Source: Bdellovibrionaceae bacterium UBA6776 (lineage in GTDB: Bacteria; Bdellovibrionota; Bdellovibrionia; Bdellovibrionales; UBA1609). Taken from it: a stretch of DNA of 64,000 bases. Shown here one piece after another: positions 2,812-56,326 of this stretch. The stretch spans positions 32,190 through 96,189 of the forward strand of contig DKGG01000011.1 in the NCBI GenBank assembly GCA_002453155.1, in the 5' to 3' direction. The notes beneath the pieces are model-generated. The model searched no databases. It saw nothing but the letters and a program-made list of their open reading frames with translations, and was not told where the DNA came from. Every line of letters starts with the position of its first letter. The first letter of the stretch is position 1. The position numbers and the translations under genes are program-made.

Positions 2812-3177
2812 ATGACCAATAAAGAAATCGTTCAAAGAATGTATCAGGCCTACATTGAGGGAAATCGAGAAGCCATTGAACCCTTAATCGCGTCGAATTT
2901 TAAATTCACAAGCCCCTTGGACAATGCCATTGATCGAACCACCTACTTTCAACGCTGTTGGCCCAACAGCCAATGGATCAAAGATTTTCGATTTGTCCAC
3001 TTGGTAGAAAATGGAGACCAAGTCTTCGTCACCTATGAGGGAGTCACCAACGAGGGGGAAGGCTTTCGAAACACCGAGATCATCACTCTTAAAGATCACA
3101 GGGCCATTGAAGTTGAGGTTTACTTTGGCTGGAATGTGCCTCACAAGGCCAAGCCTGGGGAATTTCTAAATTCTTAG
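2812..3177 (+). CDS. SnoaL/NTF2-like fold small protein
   Basis: About 120 aa beginning MTNKEIVQRMYQAYIEGNREAIEPLIA.NF, typical of the SnoaL-like family; GGGGG/AGAG just upstream of the ATG. Confidence 0.6.
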   Translation: MTNKEIVQRMYQAYIEGNREAIEPLIASNFKFTSPLDNAIDRTTYFQRCWPNSQWIKDFRFVHLVENGDQVFVTYEGVTNEGEGFRNTEIITLKDHRAIEVEVYFGWNVPHKAKPGEFLNS

Positions 3178-3231
3178 AAAAGGCCGAAAAGAGGACTCGT
3201 CACTATCTGGGATCGGTGCTAGAAAATCCCC

Positions 3232-4857
3232 ATGATTCATTTTTCAAATGTGACCAAAAATTATGGCAATAAGGTCCTTTACAAGGGCGCGAACTTTCAA
3301 CTGAATGCGGGCGAGAAGGTGGGACTTGTTGGACCCAACGGGGCGGGTAAGACCACTATCTTCCGATTAATTGTGGGTGAAGAGCGTCCCGATGACGGCC
3401 AAGTGGTCTACCCGGACAAGGTTCGCGTGGGTTACTTTTCGCAAAACCTCGAAGACATGAGCGGACGTACGGTGATTGACGAGGTCAAATCTGCAGCTGG
3501 AGATTTGATGGAAATCGAAGCTCGGCTGCCAGAGCTTGAAAAGAAAATGTGCGAGCCTTTAGATGAAGACGAAATGGCCCAAGTTCTTGAGGAATACGGT
3601 CACCTGCAAAGTGAGTTTGAGAGCAAAGGGGGATATGAACTTTCCTCGAAAGCGGCCGAAATCATCACGGGTCTTGGCTTTCCTCCAGAGTTTCACTTGC
3701 GTCCCACGGAAAGTTTCAGTGGGGGATGGAAGATGCGAATTGCATTGGCGAAAATCCTACTGATCAATCCTGATGTGCTTTTAATGGATGAACCTACGAA
3801 CCATTTGGATTTGGAATCGATCATTTGGTTGGAATCTTGGATCAACCAGTATGAAGGTGCTTTGTTGATGACAAGCCATGATCGGGAATTCATGAACCGC
3901 TTAGTGACAAAGATCGTCGAGGTGGCCCATCAAACCGTGACGGTCTATGGAGGCAATTACGACTTTTATGTGCGCGAAAGCGAAGTCCGTCGCGAGCAAT
4001 TGATCGCTGCAGCCAAACGTCAGGAAGAAATGCTGGCCAAGGAAGAAGAATTTATTGCGCGGTTTGCGGCTCGAGCTTCTCATGCGGCGCAAGTTCAGTC
4101 GCGGGTAAAGAAGATCGAAAAGATTGATCGCATTGAGGTTCCTCAGGAAGAACGGGCCATTCAGTTTGTCTGGCCAGAGCCACCACGAAGTGGGGACGAG
4201 GTTTTTAAATTTAAAGATCTCAAAAAGTCCTACGCTTTAGAAGATGGAAAAGAACTTCCGGTGTTTTCAAATTTAACAGGAACGGTCAAAAGGTTGGATC
4301 GAATTGCCGTGACCGGAGTCAACGGAGCCGGAAAATCCACGCTTTTAAAAATCATTACCGGGCAAATTGACCCTTCTGATGGTGAAGGGCAGCTGGGAGC
4401 CAGTGTGCTATTGGGCTATTTCAGTCAAAACTCTTTGGATCTGCTCGACAAAGACAAAACCATTTTGGAAGAGCTGCAAAGTCGCTTTCCCACTCAAAAT
4501 TTAGGATATTTGCGAAACTTGCTCGGGGCTTTTAAGTTTTCAGGAGATGAAGTGGACAAAAAGATCTCGGTGCTCTCCGGAGGAGAAAAAAGTCGTGTGG
4601 TCCTCGCCACCATCTTGGCAAAGCCAGTAAACTTTTTGGTTCTGGATGAACCTACCAACCATTTGGACATTCAATCTCGAGAGGTTTTGTTGGATGCCAT
4701 CAATGAATTTCCAGGAACAGTGATGATCGTAAGCCATGATCGGCACTTTTTAAGACATGTGACCAATCGTGTGTTCCATTTGGATCATCATGAACTTCAT
4801 ATTTACGACGGAACTTGGGATGAATATCAGCGCAAACTCGAAAGCCTAGCTCAATAA
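3232..4857 (+). CDS. ABC-F family ATPase (two tandem ABC domains, no TM domain)
   Basis: Two Walker A motifs (GPNGAGKTT, GVNGAGKST), two signature motifs (FSGGWKMR, LSGGEKSR), two Walker B motifs (LLMDEPTNHLD, LVLDEPTNHLD) and an inter-domain linker. Confidence 0.9.
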   Translation: MIHFSNVTKNYGNKVLYKGANFQLNAGEKVGLVGPNGAGKTTIFRLIVGEERPDDGQVVYPDKVRVGYFSQNLEDMSGRTVIDEVKSAAGDLMEIEARLPELEKKMCEPLDEDEMAQVLEEYGHLQSEFESKGGYELSSKAAEIITGLGFPPEFHLRPTESFSGGWKMRIALAKILLINPDVLLMDEPTNHLDLESIIWLESWINQYEGALLMTSHDREFMNRLVTKIVEVAHQTVTVYGGNYDFYVRESEVRREQLIAAAKRQEEMLAKEEEFIARFAARASHAAQVQSRVKKIEKIDRIEVPQEERAIQFVWPEPPRSGDEVFKFKDLKKSYALEDGKELPVFSNLTGTVKRLDRIAVTGVNGAGKSTLLKIITGQIDPSDGEGQLGASVLLGYFSQNSLDLLDKDKTILEELQSRFPTQNLGYLRNLLGAFKFSGDEVDKKISVLSGGEKSRVVLATILAKPVNFLVLDEPTNHLDIQSREVLLDAINEFPGTVMIVSHDRHFLRHVTNRVFHLDHHELHIYDGTWDEYQRKLESLAQ

Positions 4858-47223: not shown

Positions 47224-48561
47224 ATGAATAAAAAAGTATGGTTGAGTATAGTCTTAACATTGAGTTCCTTAAGTGCAGGTGCTCAGACCTTAAGTTTTGA
47301 TGAAGTCTGGAAGGACATTCAGAAATCTTCTTTGGCCATCAAAGCTTCAAATCTACAAGTTGAAGCCATGGAGGATTCAAAAAGTAGGGCTTCTAGGCAT
47401 TGGCTTCCCCGTGTTTACTTGGATGGAAGAAGCTACACCACCAATGATCCTGGAAATTCCTTTTTTGGAATTTTGTCCCAACGATCTTTGCAGCAAGCGG
47501 ATTTCAGTCCAGATGCCATCAGCCACCCGGATGCAAAGAACTATATGAGAGGTGCTCTTGGAGTGGACTTTGCCCTTTTTGAAGGGGGGATGAAATCGGC
47601 CCAAGTGGACGTTTTTAAAGAATCTTTGGATGCACAAAAACTTCAAAAAAATCAGATCCAGTTGGATCAGTTTGTGGAAGTAGGGAAGTCCTATGGATCG
47701 ATCTCTACTTTGGAACGGCAAAAGGAAAAGCTAAACACTCTTTCCGACCAACTTCAGAAAATGATTCGCGGCTATCAATTGGGTTCCAAATCGAATCCGG
47801 TGGGCTATTCGGGTCTTTTGGGAATGAAAGCTTTGGGCAATCGATTGAGTGCAATGTTGTCAAATTATGAAGCTCAATTGAAATCTCATTATGGAGTCCT
47901 TCGAGAATTGGGTCTTGAAAGGACCACATGGAAACCCGAGTCCATTGAGGTTCGCGAGTTCGTTCAAAGTCATTTTTCCTCTCAAAAGAGTGACGGCGAT
48001 TCTTTTGGACTAAAAGCGCAAAATCATCAAGCCAAAGCTGCTGAGCACATGTCAAAGATGGAAAGAGCAAGATATCTTCCTCGCGTGGGACTGTTTGCAG
48101 AGAACTCCATGTTCCATGGGGATCGCGACACCGCCAATGCCTATACGGCAGGAGTTTATGTGCAATGGAGTCTATTTAATCCTGACGACTATGGTCGCTA
48201 CGGAGAAGCGCGGTTGAAAGCCATGGCTGCAAAGGCAGGAGTGGAAGCTTTAGGGCAACAAGAAAGAGCCGCGGTCCTTTCAATGAACGAGCAAAAGGAA
48301 GCCCTGGAAAATGGACTGAAGCTTGTCAATGAGAGTGATGACCTTTTGGTGGAACAAACAAAAACCACTCAAACACTTTTTAGAAACGGATCCATCAGTG
48401 CCTTGCAAATGGTTGAGGTTCTTAATCGTCGTGTGGATTTGATCGATCAGCAAAGTCAAATGGAGCTGGGCCTACTTCAGGTTTCTGGCGAACTGCTTAA
48501 AAAAGAACAAGTGAACTTAGAGGCCAAAGTTGTGGGAGGAAAACACTATGATGCAAGATAA
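47224..48561 (+). CDS. TolC-family outer membrane efflux protein
   Basis: Signal peptide; two-repeat helical/beta architecture; typical N-terminal LSFDEVWKDIQKSSLAIKAS. Confidence 0.85.
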   Translation: MNKKVWLSIVLTLSSLSAGAQTLSFDEVWKDIQKSSLAIKASNLQVEAMEDSKSRASRHWLPRVYLDGRSYTTNDPGNSFFGILSQRSLQQADFSPDAISHPDAKNYMRGALGVDFALFEGGMKSAQVDVFKESLDAQKLQKNQIQLDQFVEVGKSYGSISTLERQKEKLNTLSDQLQKMIRGYQLGSKSNPVGYSGLLGMKALGNRLSAMLSNYEAQLKSHYGVLRELGLERTTWKPESIEVREFVQSHFSSQKSDGDSFGLKAQNHQAKAAEHMSKMERARYLPRVGLFAENSMFHGDRDTANAYTAGVYVQWSLFNPDDYGRYGEARLKAMAAKAGVEALGQQERAAVLSMNEQKEALENGLKLVNESDDLLVEQTKTTQTLFRNGSISALQMVEVLNRRVDLIDQQSQMELGLLQVSGELLKKEQVNLEAKVVGGKHYDAR

Positions 48562-51500
48562 TCAATTGGGCTTTGCCGGAAAATTGGGAAAAGCATTTGT
48601 CCATTCCAAGTTAACTCCTGTGATTGCCATTGCCAGTCTTTTGCTGGGTGTGATGGCGGTCTACCTCACTCCAAAAGAAGAAGAACCGCAAATTTCGGTT
48701 CCGATGATTGACATTCGAACTCCGGCTCCGGGTTTCACTCCAGAGGAAACCGAAAGAAAGGTGACCGAACCCATCGAACGCGCAGTCTGGGGATTGGATG
48801 GAGTGGAATATGTCTATTCTTCCAGTCAAGCTCATGGAAGCTTAGTGACTGTACGGTTTAAGGTGGGCGAACCCATGGAGCCCAGTCTTGTGAAAATTCA
48901 TCACAAGCTGATGACCATTCGCCATGAGCTTCCGGAAGCTTCGCGAAACTCCATTGTGAAGTCATTCTCTATTGATGACGTTCCCTTCTTGGTTTTGACC
49001 TTTAGCTCTCCGGAGATGGACGACTTTGAACTTCGAACAGCTGTGGCTCCATTGGCGCGGGAGCTTTCGAGCACTCCTGATCTTTCAAAAGTGGAAGTGC
49101 TTGGCGGGCGAAAAAGAGCCGTTCGCGTGATCGCTGACCCTAAAAAAATGGAACGCTACGGAGTTTCTCTTCTTTCTATTGTTCAAGCCTTAAAGGCCAA
49201 TGATGCCTTGGCTCCGGCGGGTAAAAACTGGAGTGACGAAGAAGTGGTCGACGTGGAAGTGGGAGGACGTCTTCACAGCGCGGACGAAGTTCAAAACTTG
49301 GCGATCGGCCAAAGAGCGGGACGAGTGGTCTTTGTCAAAGATGTTGCTGATGTTGTGGATGGGCCCGAACAATTGATTCGAAGTTCGGTTCTTGTTGAAG
49401 AAGGAAAAAAGCCAGTCAACGCGGTTTCGATTGTGTTCTCAAAACGCAAAGGGACAAATGTTGTGACCTTGGCCCGTCAAATTCTGAATCGTGCAGAGAC
49501 CTTTTTAAAGGAACAGCCGGCAAAGTTAGAAATGAGCGTGGTTCGTGATTATGGATCTACTGCTTCTGACAAATCCAATGAATTGATCGAGCATTTGCTT
49601 CTTGCCACCTTTTCAGTTGCGGTACTGATTGCAATTTTTATGGGAATTCGTGCTTCATTGGTTGTTGCAATTGCAATTCCTGTGACTCTGGCACTGACCT
49701 TGGCCATCTATTATTTCATGGGGTACACACTTAACCGAGTGACTTTGTTTGCATTGATTTTTTCAATTGGGATTTTGGTGGATGATGCAATTGTCGTGGT
49801 TGAAAATATTGAACGCCATTTGAAGAAAAATTTAAAAGACAGTTTTGTGAAGGTCACTATCGATGCGGTTAGCGAAGTTGGGAACCCGACAATTCTAGCG
49901 ACGTTTACTGTAATTGCGGCGATTCTTCCTATGGCTTTTGTACGGGGATTGATGGGGCCCTACATGAAACCCATTCCTGTGGGTGCAAGTTTTGCGATGA
50001 TTTTGTCTTTGATTGTTGCTTTTGTGGTGACCCCTTGGGCGGCAGTGAAGCTTTTAAAGCGGCATGAGCACAAAGAAGAAGATCACAAGATCAGTCGTTT
50101 GGATCAAATTTATCAAAGAGTCATGGAGACTTTGCTCTCTACAAAGAAAGCGGCCCTTGGTTTTGGTGCATTTACCATTGTTTTGCTTCTTGCTTCTATG
50201 AGTTTGGTGGCCTTCAAAGCAGTCAAAGTGAAGATGCTTCCTTTTGACAACAAAGAGGAATTTCAAATTGTGGTGGACTATCCCTCAACCACATCTTTTG
50301 AACAGGGAAAAACCTGGTCTGTGGAGCTTGCCGAAAAAATTCTTGAGAATGAAAATGTGGAGGCCGTTCAGGTTTTTGCTGGAGAACCAGCACCATTTTC
50401 TTTTTCCGGAATGGTAAAGCATACTTTCCTTCGAGGAGCAGATTTTCAAAATGATCTGCATGTGGTTCTTTCTGAAAAGGGTCATAGAGATCTTTCCAGT
50501 CATGAAGTGATAGAAAGTTTAAGACCTCTTGTGAAAGAGTTTGGGGAGTCTCACAAAGCCATCACAAAGGTTTTGGAAATTCCACCGGGGCCTCCCGTGT
50601 TGGCGACCATGATGGCAGAGGTCTATGGTCCCAGTGCCAAAGTCAGAGATCAGGTGGCTGGAGAAATCGAGCAGATCTTTGCCAATGAACCGAGCGTTGT
50701 CGATCTTGATACAACCATGAGATTGGGACGTCCCCGTCGGTTTTATGAATATGATCAAGCCCAGGGGGGATTGTTGGGAACCAAGTCCGCCGAATTGATG
50801 GTCCTCGGTCACTTGATGTTCTCTGAAACTCCAGTGACCACCTTGGCAGCGGTGAATGCTCCTGAAGAGGTCAGTGTGGATTTGTCCTTAGAGAATTCTG
50901 TGCGATCGAGTGCAGATCCTTTTCAAGGATTGCGAGTTCCATCTTTTGAGACGGGAACCGTGGAGGCTGATAAAGTTTTGAAGGCGCCTCGTGAAATTCC
51001 AAATAAGACACTCTATCGAAAAAATCTAAAGCCAGTGTCCTATGTTATGAGTGAGCTTTCCGGAGAAGAAGAAGCGCCGGTTTATGGAATTCTAAAGTTG
51101 GCGCCTCAAATTAAGTATCCTCTTCAGACCGCAGAAGTTCCTTGGGACACAACCTCACCTGTCGTGAAATGGGATGGAGAATGGTTTATCACCTACGAGG
51201 TCTTTCGAGATTTAGGAGGTGCCTTTGCCGTGGTGATGGTGCTGATCTACATCTTGGTATTGGGATGGTTTAAAAGTTTTACGGTTCCTTTGATCATCAT
51301 GGCTCCAATACCAATCAGTTTGATCGGGATTCTTCCAGGCCACGCAATTTTGGGATCCTACTTTACGGCGACGTCTATGATTGGGTTTATTGCTGGAGCT
51401 GGAATTATTGTGAGGAACTCGATCATTTTGGTGGACTTTATTGAGCATCAGTTGGCACGTGGGATGGGATTGAAACTGTCTGTCATCAGTGCCGGTGTGC

Positions 51501-51730
51501 TTCGATTTCGTCCCATGCTTTTAACAGCAGCTGCGGTCGTGGTCGGAAGTTCCGTGATGCTTGCAGATCCCATCTTTCAAGGGTTGGCAGTCAGTCTGAT
51601 CTTTGGGGAAATTGCTGCGACCATTTTAAGTCGTTTTGCGGTGCCTATTCTTTACTACTGGTTTGTCGGAAAAACCCGTCAAGCTGTCATTCAATCTGAA
51701 AATTCTTTGAAGGAAGGAGAAATTTTATGA
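48548..51730 (+). CDS. RND efflux permease (HAE-1/AcrB-like)
   Basis: 12-TM/two-loop layout; TM4 motif SIGILVDDAIVVVENIER; start overlaps the TolC stop by 14 nt. Confidence 0.9.
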   Translation: MMQDNQLGFAGKLGKAFVHSKLTPVIAIASLLLGVMAVYLTPKEEEPQISVPMIDIRTPAPGFTPEETERKVTEPIERAVWGLDGVEYVYSSSQAHGSLVTVRFKVGEPMEPSLVKIHHKLMTIRHELPEASRNSIVKSFSIDDVPFLVLTFSSPEMDDFELRTAVAPLARELSSTPDLSKVEVLGGRKRAVRVIADPKKMERYGVSLLSIVQALKANDALAPAGKNWSDEEVVDVEVGGRLHSADEVQNLAIGQRAGRVVFVKDVADVVDGPEQLIRSSVLVEEGKKPVNAVSIVFSKRKGTNVVTLARQILNRAETFLKEQPAKLEMSVVRDYGSTASDKSNELIEHLLLATFSVAVLIAIFMGIRASLVVAIAIPVTLALTLAIYYFMGYTLNRVTLFALIFSIGILVDDAIVVVENIERHLKKNLKDSFVKVTIDAVSEVGNPTILATFTVIAAILPMAFVRGLMGPYMKPIPVGASFAMILSLIVAFVVTPWAAVKLLKRHEHKEEDHKISRLDQIYQRVMETLLSTKKAALGFGAFTIVLLLASMSLVAFKAVKVKMLPFDNKEEFQIVVDYPSTTSFEQGKTWSVELAEKILENENVEAVQVFAGEPAPFSFSGMVKHTFLRGADFQNDLHVVLSEKGHRDLSSHEVIESLRPLVKEFGESHKAITKVLEIPPGPPVLATMMAEVYGPSAKVRDQVAGEIEQIFANEPSVVDLDTTMRLGRPRRFYEYDQAQGGLLGTKSAELMVLGHLMFSETPVTTLAAVNAPEEVSVDLSLENSVRSSADPFQGLRVPSFETGTVEADKVLKAPREIPNKTLYRKNLKPVSYVMSELSGEEEAPVYGILKLAPQIKYPLQTAEVPWDTTSPVVKWDGEWFITYEVFRDLGGAFAVVMVLIYILVLGWFKSFTVPLIIMAPIPISLIGILPGHAILGSYFTATSMIGFIAGAGIIVRNSIILVDFIEHQLARGMGLKLSVISAGVLRFRPMLLTAAAVVVGSSVMLADPIFQGLAVSLIFGEIAATILSRFAVPILYYWFVGKTRQAVIQSENSLKEGEIL

Positions 51731-51921
51731 GCATTCAACATCAAATTCGTGCCTTTGCAGGAACCTTTGTATTAGCGAGTTTGGCTTTGGCCCATTATCA
51801 TTCGGAATATTGGCTGTTCTTTACAGCCTTTGTTGGATTCAATTTGTTGCAGTCCAGCTTCACAAATTTTTGCCCCTTGGAAATGATTTTAAGAAAGCTA
51901 CAGCCCGCGAAAGTAAATTGA
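51727..51921 (+). CDS. DUF2892 (YgaP C-terminal-like) two-TM protein
   Basis: IRAFAGTFVLASL..FVGFNLLQSSFTNFCP; ATGA overlap with the RND stop. Confidence 0.75.
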   Translation: MSIQHQIRAFAGTFVLASLALAHYHSEYWLFFTAFVGFNLLQSSFTNFCPLEMILRKLQPAKVN

Positions 51922-51945
51922 TTTTTTTCAAGTGGTTTAAAGTTT

Positions 51946-51972
51946 AGGGATCTGTTCCGTATACAGATCCCT
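51946..51972 (+). terminator. Terminator-like hairpin
   Basis: 10-bp stem AGGGATCTGT/ACAGATCCCT with a 7-nt loop; only a weak T tract follows. Confidence 0.45.
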
Positions 51973-52004
51973 GAATTTCTGAGGTTCTATGGTCTCCTCT
52001 AGTA

Positions 52005-52072
52005 AATACACCCATCCATGGCCTCACAAGAATTTTCCTTTCAGGAAAATCGCCTCTTGTTTCCATGAGGTC
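52005..52072 (+). repeat. Foldback-repeat family, copy 0 (core only)
   Basis: CCCATCCATGG..TTTTCC-TTTCA-GGAAAATCGC..GAGGTC. Confidence 0.75.
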
Positions 52073-52084
52073 TATTCCTGTGTG

Positions 52085-52191
52085 TAAGTTGCTATTTCCC
52101 AAATCCATATTTCATAGAACCGGACACACTCATCCATGAGTTCTTCCAGCATTTGCCTTTCAGGCAAAGCGCATCCCGCTTGGTAGAGGTC
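52085..52191 (+). repeat. Foldback-repeat family, copy 1 (left arm + core)
   Basis: The arm at 52085-52119 matches the copy-2 arm at 30/35 positions. The core matches the copy-2 core apart from about 8 substitutions. Confidence 0.8.
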
Positions 52192-52203
52192 GGTTTCTGC
52201 GCA

Positions 52204-52348
52204 TAAGTTCTTACTTCTCAAATCCATATTTTATAGAAGCGGACACACTCATCCATGAGTTCTTCCAGCATTTGCCCTCCGGGCAAAACGCATCCTGCTT
52301 GCTGGAGGTCCTTTTCTATAAAATATGGATTTGAGAAGTAAGAACTTA
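52204..52348 (+). repeat. Foldback-repeat family, copy 2 (complete: 35-bp perfect inverted arms + 75-nt core)
   Basis: 52204-52238 is the exact reverse complement of 52314-52348. Confidence 0.9.
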
Positions 52349-52360
52349 CACACAGCAGGA

Positions 52361-53161
52361 TCAGCCTTTGTGGAGGTTGTGAGAGGCACACAATACTTGA
52401 AGGTTGTTCCTTCGCTGGTCGCCACCAAGTCTGACTGGAAAAATGTGATCGATTTGTAAGAACTGTCGAGATTCGCAACCTGGATATTGGCATTTGTAGT
52501 CCGCTGTCGTTAACACATCATTTCGCAGGCGCTTGGAAATTTGACGGGGATTCTTTGATTTTGGTGCACAAAACTCTTTTGTCTCAGTGGGTTTTGGAGA
52601 TTTCCTCTGAATGTTTTCATAAGATTTGAGTTCTTTTTCAATCAAGTCCATCAATAGGCTTTCCGCATTGTGCTTATGAGACTTCAGTGCTTTCAATCTC
52701 TCTAATTTTTCATGCTGTTCATGGGACAGCTCCAGTCTCAAATGCACTTTGTCTAAATACTCGGTCTTTTTGATCTTTATGGTCGGTGTGGGTTTCAAAA
52801 ACATGGCCTTTACTTCACGAGAAGATTTATTTTCCATAGACTTCAAAACTTTTCTTTTTTCCGCCACCGGCTTTTTTCGAAGATGCTTGAAAGCAGTGGT
52901 CACTGCAGACAGGGTCAGGCTTCCCTGATCAATTTTCTGTTTGATCTCAGGAACTTCCTTGGCCAAGCGGACACAGGCTTGTCTTTGGTAGGCAGTGGCC
53001 TCGGAGTATCCAAGTCCGCGAACCAAGTAATCGAAAAGAGAATGGTGACCCATCTCTAGATACTTTCTGCAGTTTTCCATTTCTTGAAGCTTATTTAGAA
53101 TTTCAGAAGTGATTCGTTTTTCTTTCTGGCGCAGCTCTAGAAGCTCATCGTGAATTTTCAT
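52361..53161 (-). CDS. HNH endonuclease with a DUF222-like helical N-terminal region
   Basis: C-terminal CQYPGCESRQFLQIDHIFPVRLGGDQRRNNLQVLCASHNLHK (HNH motif). Confidence 0.85.
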   Translation of the reverse strand: MKIHDELLELRQKEKRITSEILNKLQEMENCRKYLEMGHHSLFDYLVRGLGYSEATAYQRQACVRLAKEVPEIKQKIDQGSLTLSAVTTAFKHLRKKPVAEKRKVLKSMENKSSREVKAMFLKPTPTIKIKKTEYLDKVHLRLELSHEQHEKLERLKALKSHKHNAESLLMDLIEKELKSYENIQRKSPKPTETKEFCAPKSKNPRQISKRLRNDVLTTADYKCQYPGCESRQFLQIDHIFPVRLGGDQRRNNLQVLCASHNLHKG

Positions 53162-53424
53162 AGGTCCTCTTTCTTTTGAAAGAACATTACCATGGGTTTT
53201 TATTTTCTAATTTTACGCCTTAGTTTTGTTTTTGAGGAAGCTTTTGCAGTCGAGAACATCCGTTCTTGGAGTTCAAATTTAACGAGTACAGTAAGCCCGA
53301 GAATTGTTTTAAAGATGATCCTACAAATGATTTCAATTTAACGATTCGCTTAAACGAAATCGAAAAAAACAACGTCAAACATAGTTTCTAAAAAGATTAA
53401 GTTTCGCCGCAACGTTTAGTAGGC

Positions 53425-54515
53425 AACTAAAACTTGAGTGTCCGTAACCAGTGCGACTCCTGCGGAATTGAAAAAGGGTCACCCCTGACCTATTAATCAA
53501 GTTCGCAAAAATTCAACTAAAAGGAGTTTGTACTATGGTTAAGTACTCAAGGGTGACTTACGAGCAAAGATGCCAGATCTACGTATTGTTGCAAGCAAAA
53601 ACCAAGGTTCTTGAAATTTCAAGGCTTGTTGGGGTTCACAAAAGTACAGTTTACAGGGAGTTGAGGCGAAATTCCTACGCGACTAAAAATCCATACTCAT
53701 CAGTACGGATGTATGAGCCCAATAAAGCTCATGCGATGGCTCGACGAAGGTTTTTAGATCGTTGTCATAGAAAACTGTCAGTTACAGGTCTTGTGGAGAC
53801 TCAGGTTATAAAGCTTTTGCAAAGGGGCTGGAGCCCTCAATTGATTGCCGGAAGAATAGGTCTTGAGACTCGCAAGAAGCTTTCTCATATGACGATCTAT
53901 CGGTTTACGAAAAAGAACGCTTATTTAAAAAGATACTTACATCACAAAGGTCGTAGATATCCCTACCGACCGACGAGCACCAATCAAGGTCCGAAGCCTA
54001 AGTGGTGGCGCTCTGTGCACGAGAGGCCCTTGGCTTGTCAGGAGAGATCTGAGCTTGGACACTGGGAGCGAGATTTGATGTATGCAAAAGATAGAGCTCC
54101 GATATTAGTCTGTACAGATCGAAAATCGAGATATGTAACATGCTTAGAGTTGAACACTTCAGGTTCACAGGAAACGCAAGAGAAGACAGCGATTTTGCTA
54201 AAACCATTTCCTGTTCACTCAGTGACCAATGATCAAGGAAGTGAATTTAAATCCAGAAATCCCATGGGGTGCCCCGTTTACTTTTGTGATCCCAGAGCAC
54301 CTAATCAAAGAGGTACGGTTGAGAACACAATAGGTGTGATGAGGCGATTTATAAAAAACTCCACAGATCTTAGTGAAGTGAACTTAGAACAAATTGAAAT
54401 ATGGATGAACTTGAGGCCTCGCAAGGTCCTTGACTACAAAACACCCTATGAGGTTATGTTCGAAGAATCAGTCGCACTGGTTGTGTGAAACTAAGAAACT
54501 TGAGTGTCCGTAACC
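53425..54515 (+). mobile_element. IS30-family insertion sequence (outer limits given; minimal element 53446-54482)
   Basis: 13-bp terminal inverted repeat AACCAGTGCGACT (53446-53458) / AGTCGCACTGGTT (54470-54482). A roughly 25-bp direct repeat AACTAA(G)AAACTTGAGTGTCCGTAACC lies at 53425-53449 and 54489-54515. Confidence 0.7.
53535..54488 (+). CDS. IS30-family DDE transposase
   Basis: N-terminal HTH (RCQIYVLLQAK..ISRLVGVHKSTVYRELRRN); catalytic motifs GHWERDLM, TNDQGSEF, QRGTVENTIG. Confidence 0.9.
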   Translation: MVKYSRVTYEQRCQIYVLLQAKTKVLEISRLVGVHKSTVYRELRRNSYATKNPYSSVRMYEPNKAHAMARRRFLDRCHRKLSVTGLVETQVIKLLQRGWSPQLIAGRIGLETRKKLSHMTIYRFTKKNAYLKRYLHHKGRRYPYRPTSTNQGPKPKWWRSVHERPLACQERSELGHWERDLMYAKDRAPILVCTDRKSRYVTCLELNTSGSQETQEKTAILLKPFPVHSVTNDQGSEFKSRNPMGCPVYFCDPRAPNQRGTVENTIGVMRRFIKNSTDLSEVNLEQIEIWMNLRPRKVLDYKTPYEVMFEESVALVV

Positions 54516-54564
54516 CGCACGCTTCGTTTGCCACCCCTCTTTCGAGGGTCAGGTTTCGAGTGTT

Positions 54565-54688
54565 TTTTCAAGATCTAAAACCCATAATTCCTGACCCGAC
54601 CGTCCATAGACTCACCATCGTTTTCCTTTCAGGAAAATCGCATCCTGCTCGATTGAGGTCTGTCACTATGGATTTTAGATCTTGAAAA
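54565..54688 (+). repeat. Foldback-repeat family, copy C (22-bp arms with 1 mismatch, 80-nt centre)
   Basis: Arms TTTTCAAGATCTAAAACCCATA / TATGGATTTTAGATCTTGAAAA; core CCGTCCATAG..TTTTCCTTTCAGGAAAATCGCATCCTGCT..GAGGTC. Confidence 0.8.
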
Positions 54689-54773
54689 TAGACATCCATG
54701 AAACTTCTGTTCAAAAAAAATATAGGCGCCTATAAAAGTGATGCTTTTGAAATGTTTCGGGGGATTCTGCTAT

Positions 54774-54889
54774 CAAGTTCAACGATCCACAGAATAGGAT
54801 CTCCGGCAAGCAGGATGCGTTTTGCCGAAGTGCAAATGCCGGAAGAGTTCATGGATGAACGTATCCTATTCTGTGGATCGTTGAACTTG
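54774..54889 (-). repeat. Foldback-repeat family, copy B (27-bp perfect arms, 62-nt core in inverted orientation)
   Basis: 54774-54800 is the exact reverse complement of 54863-54889. The reverse complement of the centre reads TTCATCCATGAACTCTTCCGGCATTTGCACTTCGGCAAAACGCATCCTGCTTGCCGGAG. Confidence 0.85.
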
Positions 54890-54920
54890 AAAGTAAGCTT
54901 CCTCGAAATCTAATGCTTGT

Positions 54921-54944
54921 GAGCCCATGGATGGGCGTGTTTAC
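54921..54944 (-). repeat. Partial repeat: inverted copy of the 5' end of copy 0
   Basis: The reverse complement GTAAACACGCCCATCCATGGGCTC matches 52001-52024 (GTAAATACACCCATCCATGGCCTC) at 21/24 positions. Confidence 0.6.
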
Positions 54945-54990
54945 TTGAAGTGATTGTTAACCTGAAAAATTTGCTGTAGATGAGGAAAGA

Positions 54991-55028
54991 ACCCATGGAT
55001 GTCAGAGTCCAGCACGATTGAGGTCTAC
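54991..55028 (+). repeat. Partial repeat fragment (CCATGGATG + CGATTGAGGTCT)
   Basis: CGATTGAGGTCT is identical to the 3' end of the copy C core. Confidence 0.5.
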
Positions 55029-55099: not shown

Positions 55100-56326
55100 T
55101 CAGTCTTGAAGCATCCGGTGGTGAAAACGTTTTTCTAGGGAAAGAATAAAAATGCAAATCAAACTGGCGCCGCCAAAACTCAATACCAAGGGGAGAATGC
55201 TCTCGTGATAGTACTTCCCAAGGAAAATTCCAATGGCCACAGATATTGTGCTTTGAACAAACCCAATCAAGGCAGACCCCACTCCGGCCACATGGCCTAA
55301 GGGCTCCATGGCCAGGGCGTTTAAATTCCCGAACAAAAATCCCACCGAAAAGAAAGTCAAAATCATATAGATCATAAAAACCATCAAAGGAGGTGGAGTC
55401 GAGGGAAGGTAATTGGTTAAATAGAGTGCAAAAAGATTAGAGATCAATGCCATCCACAAAAAAGCCCCAAGAATCAAACGCCGCATACCTAAAGCCATCA
55501 CCAGGCGGGAGTTGAAAAAAGAAGCCCCACCAATGGAAAGCGCTAGAATCCCAAACATCAGAGGAAAGAGCTTCTCCATATGAAAAATTCGCGAGAAAAT
55601 TTCTTGAGCAGAGCCCAGGTAACCCACAAAGATTCCAAATAAAATTCCCGAAACAATCATGCAAGAAACCGTCGTAGGTTGTCGAAAAGTCTCTTTAACT
55701 CCAAAAACTAACTGCTTGGCGGTGAACCCTCTTCTTAATCCCGGCGGTAGAGTTTCATGTTGGCGAATTGCAAACCACGCCCATAAACTCAAGGCGACCA
55801 CACACAAAAGAATAAAAATGGCTCTCCAATGAAAGAAATAAATCACTCCCTGACCCAGAGTGGGAGCCAATGCCGGCACCAAAATGAAAATGGTCATCAC
55901 CATAGAGGTGATCTGTGCCATCGCGTTCCCTTTGTACTCATCCCGAATCAATGCCAACGAAATGATTCGAGGAGCTGCTCCTCCAAAACCTTGAAGGAAT
56001 CGGCCGATGAGAAACCACTCAAAACTTTGAGTCATTCCCGCCAGAACGGAACCCATGGCAAAAATCGCAACGCCCCAATAGATGGGTGGCTTTCGGCCGA
56101 AGATGTCTGAAAGCTGACCAAAAATCAGCTGTCCAAATCCAAAACCCAAAAACAAAATGGCAATGACCATTTGCAATTGATCGGGTGTTTGAAGTCGAAA
56201 GTCTCTATGAATGGCGTTGAATGCAGGGAGCATGCTGTCAATGGACAGGGCAATCAATGATGTCATCAGCGCCATCAGAGTTACAAACTCGGGACGCGAC
56301 AATTTGGTGGGCGAATTCTGAGTCAA
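55100..56326 (-). CDS. MFS transporter, Bcr/CflA-like drug efflux
   Basis: 12 TM helices; N-terminal LIALSIDSMLPAF and GQL.DIFGRKP motifs. Confidence 0.9.
   Translation of the reverse strand: MTQNSPTKLSRPEFVTLMALMTSLIALSIDSMLPAFNAIHRDFRLQTPDQLQMVIAILFLGFGFGQLIFGQLSDIFGRKPPIYWGVAIFAMGSVLAGMTQSFEWFLIGRFLQGFGGAAPRIISLALIRDEYKGNAMAQITSMVMTIFILVPALAPTLGQGVIYFFHWRAIFILLCVVALSLWAWFAIRQHETLPPGLRRGFTAKQLVFGVKETFRQPTTVSCMIVSGILFGIFVGYLGSAQEIFSRIFHMEKLFPLMFGILALSIGGASFFNSRLVMALGMRRLILGAFLWMALISNLFALYLTNYLPSTPPPLMVFMIYMILTFFSVGFLFGNLNALAMEPLGHVAGVGSALIGFVQSTISVAIGIFLGKYYHESILPLVLSFGGASLICIFILSLEKRFHHRMLQD

Follow-up and report, generated by a model that had tools for sequence, protein, structure and literature searches.

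Structured foldback repeats coupled to a multi-copy DUF222-type HNH gene in a marine lineage of Bdellovibrionota

We analyzed a 64,000-nucleotide stretch of DNA (hereafter the window) from Bdellovibrionaceae bacterium UBA6776 (GenBank assembly GCA_002453155.1, contig DKGG01000011.1, positions 32,190 to 96,189), in which a patch at 52–55 kb holds a nest of foldback repeats around a gene for an HNH endonuclease and an IS30-family insertion. We show here that the repeats constitute a real, structured, and constrained family that is specific to one lineage, and that this family goes together, in physical linkage, with an HNH gene of the DUF222 type that is itself multi-copy. The explanation that we favor, with a probability of about 0.5, is that the repeats are cis-acting DNA modules of a selfish, multi-copy DUF222-HNH element of the REP13E12 type. 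How the modules would act is something that we infer, and a structure operating at the level of DNA is more likely than one operating as RNA.

An original prediction, made from the letters of the window, had described three complete copies, two core or arm-plus-core copies, and at least two fragments of one repeat family in this patch. Sequence reading, a repeat finder, nhmmer, and a covariance model (CM R1) alike located copies at the claimed positions, and the tally of three complete (C, D, and E), two partial (A and B), and two fragmentary (F and G) copies was confirmed. Copy A (52008–52078, plus strand; nhmmer E = 2.8e-18; CM R1 42.2 bits over model positions 27–100) is a core of the CACAAGA/TCTTG-helix subtype with no partner arm. 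Copy B (52078–52196, plus strand; 72.5 bits) consists of a left arm and a core, and together with copy C makes up a 119-bp tandem duplication of arm-plus-core in which it comes first (direct repeat D1, 119-nt spacing, 80% identity). Copy C (52197–52355, plus strand; inverted repeat I1; 138.5 bits) is a complete foldback that ends 5 nt from the HNH stop codon; its arms (52197–52244 and 52308–52355) are 48 nt long and 90% complementary, with 35 nt of perfect pairing, and its core spans 52245–52316. Copy D (54560–54693, plus strand; inverted repeat I7; 105.2 bits) is a complete foldback of the CACCATCG/CGATTG subtype with 37-nt arms (54560–54596 and 54657–54693) that are 81% complementary. Copy E (54755–54908, minus strand; inverted repeat I5; 125.7 bits), also complete and of the CCGGCA/TGCCGG subtype, is inverted relative to copy D and has 46-nt arms (54755–54800 and 54863–54908; 85% complementary, 28 nt perfect). 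Fragment F (54899–54953, minus strand), a left flank with the 5' half of an A-like core, overlaps the outer end of the E arm and was recognized from an inverted repeat with the A region (I2), an nhmmer match (E = 2.9e-4), and a CM match of 15.7 bits (E = 0.6). Fragments G (54976–55027) comprise a CATCCATGGG piece on the minus strand and a core 3' end, TCCAGCACGATTGAGGTCT, on the plus strand, identified from direct repeat family D3 and weak nhmmer matches.

A profile built from the five cores recovered them at E values of 1e-18 to 1e-22, and nhmmer detected no further copy in the remaining 61 kb of the window. The pattern of conserved blocks matched five out of five cores and gave no match in 100 shuffles. 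As predicted, none of the copies lies within a credible gene, since the overlapping open reading frames (ORFs) are only 51–91 amino acids long and unsupported. The claim that CATCCATG or its complement occurs eight times in the patch needed correction: the exact count is seven, with copy D having CGTCCATA instead. Exact CATCCATG occurs 13 times in the whole window versus 2.45 expected.

We surveyed the family by scanning a metagenome collection with a strict pattern, which found 27 stretches (loci are designated below by L numbers). Within them nhmmer detected 85 cores, 79 of which could be extracted with flanks, and 57 of these were distinct; merging duplicates and two contiguous chunks of one contig (L133 + L132) gave 21 non-redundant nests. 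The concern that the motif might occur nowhere else is thereby answered by many further loci in related genomes. The carriers are close relatives, namely marine Pseudobdellovibrionaceae metagenome-assembled genomes (MAGs), and the HNH, IS30, and MFS proteins of the window have likewise been deposited from marine MAGs named Bdellovibrionaceae or Pseudobdellovibrionaceae bacterium. The window locus was assembled identically and independently in at least five data sets, including Tara and Red Sea. Copies were never evenly scattered; they were arranged as inverted pairs, as tandem series repeating every ~119 nt (five units in L123, and three each in L128 and L139), or as mixtures of both, and each of four contigs carried two nests. 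The strict pattern had no match in viral contigs, and a distant BLAST search with copy C had none in plasmid and phage collections.

An alignment of 34 distinct full copies yielded a consensus fold for a module of ~120–150 bp with a structured center of 62–77 nt. The fold is Y-shaped, with a long outer stem formed by the arms and capped by a conserved three-branch core. The core contains a short GGAC/GTCC helix, a 4-bp hairpin with the loop ATCCAT, and a 6-bp helix stacked on a 7-bp hairpin, TTTGCCC/GGGCAAA. On its 3' side a bulge forms a mini-hairpin, GC-ATCCT-GC, so that CGCATCCTGC forms a second mini-hairpin similar to the ATCCAT one; C-ATCCAT-G and C-ATCCT-G are thus displayed on one core as a pair of near-identical loops. 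CATCCATG, which had been taken for a free motif, is instead the ATCCAT loop with the closing C-G pair of a covarying 4-bp hairpin.

Pairing was present in 95.1% of alignment cells, versus 73.4% after shuffling of partners, and fell to 31–49% when partners were slid by 1–3 columns. Changes on both sides were seen in 33 of the 41 pairs, every helix covaried, including the 4-bp ATCCAT hairpin, and the covariation score was 0.567 versus 0.19. Both sides had changed in 307 cells, versus one-sided changes in 14 of 1355. Single-stranded DNA folding gave z-scores of -14.7 for copy C (-45.1 kcal/mol), -7.1 for D, and -14.0 for E, and the opposite strand of C folded equally well (z = -12.5).

Upon comparing copies with one another, we noted that the mean pairwise identity was 0.51 in the arms (minimum 0.12) versus 0.78 in the core, with the arms nonetheless 92% paired within a copy. 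The arms are thus not unrelated between copies but alignable and fast-evolving, and the feature that is kept in them is pairing, not sequence. The invariant columns of the alignment are all in the center and none is at the outer ends. The cores downstream of the HNH paralogues in the window, L140, and L126 are identical at 69 of 71 positions, and the synonymous divergence (dS) of those genes is 0.8–1.6; therefore the core changes far more slowly than neutral sites, reflecting either selection or continual homogenization. Relative to L140 and the window, L126 has the same core inverted inside the same arms.

The HNH gene of the window (52361–53161, minus strand; 266 amino acids; Pfam PF01844 and homologues) had been described as an orphan. 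We found that it belongs to a multi-copy family under purifying selection, with a ratio of nonsynonymous to synonymous divergence of 0.06–0.14 among paralogues at dS of 0.8–2.2; at least five paralogues, distinguished by locus tag, are present in one MAG. A tblastn search with the window protein found the gene at 15 of the 27 loci at 67–93% identity, plus one at 36%, and a scan for the 5' motif added three arrays that run into the end of their locus (L123, L128, and L149). Overall, 15 of the 21 nests contain or adjoin an HNH unit, as judged by the ORF or the 5' motif, and in five others the available sequence stops within 500 nt. The spacing is also regular: the nearest core lies 309–373 nt upstream of the start codon in eight of eight units and 45–211 nt downstream of the stop codon in seven of eight, and in the window, L140, and L126 the foldback starts 5 nt past the stop.

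The HNH unit is ~1.15 kb long and comprises a motif that we call X, a promoter-like box, a 5' untranslated region (UTR), and the ORF. When the 5' ends were aligned, their order was a module M, motif X (GCCTACTAAACGTTGCGGC), a TTGAC box, a variable leader, and a conserved ribosome-binding block. In the window, the unit alignment and the motif scan place the conserved 5' UTR and ribosome-binding block, TAAAAACCCATGGTAATGTTCTTTCAAAAGAAAGAGGACCTATG, at 53162–53214 and motif X, CTACTAAACGTTGCGGC, at 53406–53422 (both minus strand), the latter ~245 nt upstream of the HNH start and followed by the TTGAC -35-like box. Motif X is found upstream of every HNH paralogue, roughly 225–260 nt from the start, and L127 and L131 have an inverted copy past the stop codon. 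By eye the 5' UTR had looked like a degenerate core, an idea that we dropped as nhmmer gave it no support. At L133 + L132, two foldback pairs, which form direct repeats of 302 bp with 96.4% identity to each other, enclose an HNH unit of 1155 bp; the unit with one flanking module measures 1457 bp. A separate observation concerns L137 (30–365 and 673–2237), where a much more distant HNH-like fragment (36% identity over 112 amino acids) lies beside three foldbacks of a distinct subtype, on an 88-kb contig shared with another HNH nest.

Next, we examined the HNH protein. Its only Pfam match is PF01844 at residues 224–265, at the C-terminus (25.4 bits versus a cut-off of 21.4), and the CxxC...DH...N...CxxHN residues are invariant across 35 homologues. 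The close family has 205 members, and a profile search retrieved 1,284 cluster representatives at E ≤1e-30, mostly full-length and of 260–350 amino acids. The window protein has no direct Pfam match to DUF222. One of the profile matches, P0196, passes the Pfam DUF222 threshold (27.4 versus 24.4 bits) and aligns with the family profile over 244 columns at 99.95% probability. By this full-length alignment, the window gene appears to be a compact member of the DUF222-HNH (REP13E12-type) superfamily, with an N-terminal helical domain that is probably distantly DUF222-like through a transitive link. In the AlphaFold model (predicted local distance difference test score 84), the N-terminal domain is built of helices and a beta hairpin and precedes the HNH domain. 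Foldseek searches of the whole model against PDB and BFVD recognized the HNH domain alone, with the Gme nicking HNH (4H9D) as the best PDB match, and had no match for the N-terminal domain. The best match by sequence in PDB was the structure-specific HNH of ZRANB3. NCBIfam gave sub-threshold, partial matches to the HNH parts of IscB and Cas9d; the IscB model covered only residues 207–265, at 31.8 bits versus a cut-off of 175.

Motif X has relatives elsewhere in and around the unit. Between the inverted pair D and E of the window lies a perfect 14-bp palindrome, TATAGGCGCCTATA (54721–54734; hereafter PAL), which recurs between inverted core pairs in L134 (~154) and L145 (~13437). PAL has relatives both in motif X and in a segment of the HNH ORF (window 52516–52533, coding SKRLRN). 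We found the same motif family in more distant relatives of the gene. One sample has three loci, L150, L151, and L152, that encode the same protein, 65% identical to that of the window; the ORF and ~260 nt upstream of it are 97–100% identical between them, with all ORF differences synonymous, and the flanks are 60–90% identical. These units carry 38-bp terminal inverted repeats, and after them come 74-nt tandem arrays, each 74-nt unit of which contains TTTATAGGCGCCTACGAAGCTGTGCGTTAAAAAA, and an 86% identical copy of it is present inside the ORF, in the region coding ISKRLRN. In the window lineage the same motif family occupies three places: motif X, the ORF, and PAL. Of the cis features, the GGCGCC-centered motif is the one shared more widely.

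Several further observations were made at these relatives. The 74-nt arrays are located at L150 5143–5463, L151 5165–5614, and L152 ~1740–1820, and their units resemble degenerate copies of an 85-nt internal piece of the HNH ORF. The terminal inverted repeats lie ~1.86 kb apart (38 bp at L151 3251–3288/5071–5108; 23 bp at L150 3180–3202/5063–5085). Upstream in L151, at 2971–3187, the HNH 5' region and the first ~8 codons occur once more, as if a unit had inserted in a unit. Microsatellite-like arrays of 8–17-nt units also lie by HNH relatives, at L151 2427–2992, L150 3553–3683, L152 1789–1998, and L162 2589–2708. At L153, a hairpin GAGCC-ATCCT-GGCTC (~3209–3223, minus strand) lies upstream of an HNH relative of 54% identity, and AAAA-ATCCAT-TTTT (~3938–3951, plus strand) lies 59 nt before the start codon of that relative. 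Such ATCCAT/ATCCT-loop hairpins number two in L153–155 (0.12 expected), and none was found in L150–152. That they share the loop sequences of the foldback core is suggestive only.

The IS30-family element (53430–54515, plus strand; transposase 53535–54488; Pfam HTH_38/rve) sits in module M, the leader region of the HNH unit. On either side of it, at 53430–53449 and 54496–54515, stands a direct duplication of 20 bp, AAACTTGAGTGTCCGTAACC, which is unusually long (direct repeat D6). The sequences at the two junctions map to a single continuous stretch of L118, where they overlap by this same 20-bp repeat. In the collections searched, this transposase was found at this one locus only. The element is a later, secondary insertion into the nest with a 20-bp target duplication and is unrelated to the repeat system. 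We accordingly rejected IS30 as an autonomous partner of the repeats: its ends are unrelated to the arms, its transposase occurs at one locus, and its site is uninterrupted in L118.

There are also signs of exchange between units. L118 and the window share 99.97% identity as far as 53214 (L118 ~9948), 53 nt upstream of the HNH start; beyond this point L118 has different DNA, with a D-like copy at 87.7% identity by BLAST, in the same relative place as copy D, and other genes. L158 matches the window from 52375 (L158 ~1841), 14 nt before the stop, and then continues into the flank of another paralogue. Moreover, five contigs end inside the nest, at window positions 52173, 52216, 52440, 52494, and 54694. 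These mosaics and contig ends would fit recombination or conversion among paralogous units.

We propose the following account of how a DUF222-HNH element might use these modules in cis. As a single strand or a cruciform, the module would fold into a stem and a three-branch core presenting the two loops and the TTTGCC/GGCAAA hairpin. The HNH protein might recognize this folded module, or the neighboring GGCGCC-centered motif X/PAL, and nick or cut there. Repair of the break from a gene-carrying copy would then carry the HNH unit from module to module in the manner of homing or gene conversion, and slipped, unequal, or hairpin-templated repair could yield the tandem units, inverted pairs, flipped cores, and fragments. 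A bolder and rather doubtful form of this proposal holds that DUF222-HNH genes in general spread by a nuclease that reads the loops of Y-shaped foldbacks and cuts, with hairpin-templated repair copying the gene and regenerating or inverting the arms.

A number of observations weigh against the cis-module proposal. The mosaic contigs could be assembly chimeras. A search by way of the YgaP-like neighbor gene returned only the occupied locus or truncated contigs, with no empty site, and neither a cleavage site nor a donor/recipient pair was found; homing is therefore not demonstrated. One of the 21 nests, L141, is a solo foldback between convergent genes with no HNH gene within 2.8–4.6 kb, and conversely the HNH paralogue at L147 lacks a downstream foldback. 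The paralogues of the window lineage are old (dS at least 0.8) and thus give no hint of a recent burst in it. Searches with nhmmer and the covariance model found the foldback absent from HNH relatives at 54–65% identity, so it does not accompany the protein family throughout. Those relatives carry other repeats (the 74-nt arrays and 38-bp terminal inverted repeats), a relative at 51% has only an 8-nt microsatellite, and one at 45% has no repeats; the protein family is thus repeatedly, though not always, embedded in lineage-specific repeats. Lastly, concerted evolution could mimic the constraint on the core.

Three readings had been offered with the original prediction, namely a recognition site for the adjacent HNH protein, a miniature inverted-repeat transposable element (MITE), or a small RNA (sRNA) family. 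The HNH-linked reading has by far the most support, from 15 of 21 nests and the fixed distances, and the other two fit poorly. We consider it improbable that the repeats are a structured non-coding RNA that works with, or acts upon, the HNH protein or mRNA, for instance as a 3' stabilizer or terminator, an antitoxin-like RNA, or a guide or scaffold. Such an RNA would account for the multi-helix fold, its strong covariation, and its conserved loops, for the foldbacks that begin 5 nt past the HNH stop, and for the weak partial matches of the HNH domain to IscB and Cas9 HNH models. The tandem arrays upstream of HNH units are, moreover, all in the sense orientation (L123, L128, L144, L127, L146, and L131), and the downstream run in the window is antisense, giving an inverted arrangement around the gene; this arrangement fits transcription but also terminal inverted arrays, so it does not decide between RNA and DNA. 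By contrast, G-U pairs are not in excess (17 G.T versus 32 A.C, which is a slight surplus of A.C at p = 0.04, for copies that are related and hence non-independent), one-sided changes are as rare as reported above, and complete foldbacks occur in both orientations relative to the HNH gene. We also detected no promoter-like or intrinsic-terminator signals flanking the copies, perfect duplex arms of 28–35 bp would be unusual for a bacterial sRNA, and there is no Rfam match. Nor does the protein have the RuvC/PLMP domains of IscB or the Nop domain of TasH, with Foldseek aligning the HNH domain only.

A MITE-like element mobilized in trans, which would accumulate together with HNH genes and IS30 in intergenic 'safe havens', seems about as improbable. 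The repeats are small and dispersed in many copies, with inverted terminal arms and insertion in either orientation; a solo copy (L141) lies between convergent genes, and nests between convergent genes also attract an IS30. However, the termini are not conserved, as the arm identities above attest, and the solo copy at L141 has no target-site duplication, its palindrome fading weakly into the flanks. A model of transposase ends has no need of covarying short internal helices, tandem arm-plus-core units are not a product of transposition, and a fixed spacing to the HNH start and stop is not expected from independent insertion. As for IS30, its ends are unrelated to the arms and it is present at one locus only. 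Very improbable, in our judgment, is that the repeats are a functionless by-product, either palindromic scars of local duplication, inversion, and recombination or an assembly artefact. The clustering of the copies, with none elsewhere in the window, the contigs of several assemblies that break inside the nest, and the debris-like appearance of fragments F and G would all be in keeping with this. Yet the same family recurs in 21 independent nests from several assemblies, the window locus was assembled independently in at least five data sets, the core is 97% conserved where neighboring synonymous sites are saturated, and compensatory changes are found in every helix.

How, then, does the element compare with known systems? 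The DUF222-HNH superfamily corresponds to the REP13E12 repeat of mycobacteria (PMC10589994). Like REP13E12, the element described here is a multi-copy unit of ~1.2–1.5 kb whose sole gene encodes an HNH endonuclease with a helical N-terminal domain, and the homology of the window protein to P0196, which passes the DUF222 threshold, extends along its entire length. Superfamily members are expected as a repeated unit of ~1.4 kb in one genome, and the five or more paralogues in one MAG and the unit of 1155 bp (1457 bp with a flanking module) agree with this. Unlike REP13E12, its protein is much shorter (255–266 amino acids) and without a DUF222 match of its own, it is embedded in nests of structured foldbacks, and its host is a marine Bdellovibrionota. 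To our knowledge, no description of REP13E12 mentions nests of foldback repeats. That DUF222-HNH genes are repeated elements has been recognized ever since the M. tuberculosis genome, and the REP13E12 repeated elements of Mycobacterium were reportedly treated by Gordon et al. in 1999. The resemblance to free-standing homing HNH genes lies in a small HNH gene that only part of the copies of a repeated site possess, an ORF more uniform than its flanks (in the relatives L150–152), and mosaic junctions at gene edges; the differences are that the putative landing pad is a non-coding structured repeat instead of a host or phage gene, and that the paralogues are old and all under purifying selection.

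Among interspersed palindromes, REP/BIME, ERIC, Correia, and RU-1/2/3 elements are likewise short, non-coding, intergenic, palindromic, and multi-copy in either orientation. In the present family, however, it is the asymmetric center and not the termini that is conserved, pairing is compensatory, arm-plus-core units form tandem arrays, the link to one gene is tight, and there is no sequence similarity to those elements. REP/BIME repeats consist of a 20–40-nt imperfect palindrome with a conserved head tetranucleotide and are associated with a RAYT gene; the ORF list and Pfam revealed no RAYT gene in the nest, and a genome-wide search for RAYT was not made. The foldbacks also recall attC sites and parvoviral T/Y hairpins in that recognition is presumably by fold, in size (57–145 nt), in having a long stem with small hairpins, and in an asymmetric center found in both orientations inside the same arms (L126 versus L140), comparable to flip/flop. 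This resemblance is architectural only, as there is no integrase or HUH Rep nearby and the copies are chromosomal and internal. An attC site has outer R''/R' sites (RYYYAAC/GTTRRRY) and belongs to cassette ORFs and an IntI integrase; R''/R' core sites are absent from the 34-copy alignment, and no integrase was found in the nest. The exclusion of REP, BIME, and attC by the original prediction therefore held, the conserved features being different. It was also right about Rfam: at gathering thresholds Rfam 15 had no match in the whole window, and at E values up to 10 the patch matched only generic microRNA-hairpin models, on the long arms and far below threshold.

A small HNH protein beside tandem structured repeats, with weak similarity in the HNH domain, further invites comparison with TIGR-Tas and IscB systems. 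TasH has an N-terminal HNH domain and a C-terminal Nop domain, and its arrays have 36-nt units with box C/D and two 8–12-nt spacers (PMC12045711). We rejected TIGR-Tas since Foldseek aligned 53 HNH columns to TasH (9w04), the domain order is reversed, and the units here measure 119–150 nt. IscB carries RuvC and PLMP domains, and its structured RNA of ~200 nt or more lies 5' of the gene. An IscB/omega-RNA assignment was also rejected: there is no RuvC or PLMP domain, the 300 nt upstream of the gene are conserved only at motif X and the ribosome-binding block, and there is no HEARO match. In type III toxin-antitoxin systems such as ToxIN, short tandem RNA repeats of ~36 nt immediately precede the gene for an endoribonuclease toxin; we discarded this candidate as well, with units of at least 119 nt on both sides of the gene and in both orientations and a protein with an HNH DNase-type fold. 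Having tested their defining features and found them absent, we conclude that the family is not a member of Rfam, REP/BIME, attC, TIGR-Tas, or IscB. Its features point to a place among selfish HNH repeat elements and bacterial interspersed palindromes, and to an undescribed gene-plus-repeat element.

The genes flanking the nest were as originally described, with Pfam supporting an RND pump (48530–51730), a YgaP-like gene (51727–51921), the HNH gene, the IS30 transposase, and an MFS transporter (55100–56326, minus strand). A hairpin, AAGTTTAGGGATCTGT/ACAGATCCCTGAATTT, at 51940–51978, 19 nt 3' of the YgaP-like gene, is probably the terminator of the RND operon and lies outside the repeat family.

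The nests also account for the contig breaks and mosaic assemblies that annotators meet in these marine MAGs. If the nuclease turns out not to be structure-specific, the family would still be a clean new bacterial interspersed repeat that conserves pairing rather than sequence. If it is structure-specific, this would mean a new mobility mechanism and a small nuclease programmable by fold. How DUF222-HNH genes multiply is a long-standing question, for which this lineage offers a concrete candidate cis site. Should the proposal prove true, the element would be a new prokaryotic mobile element whose sites, like attC or parvoviral hairpins, are defined by their fold, and whose driver is not an integrase, HUH enzyme, or transposase but an HNH nuclease.

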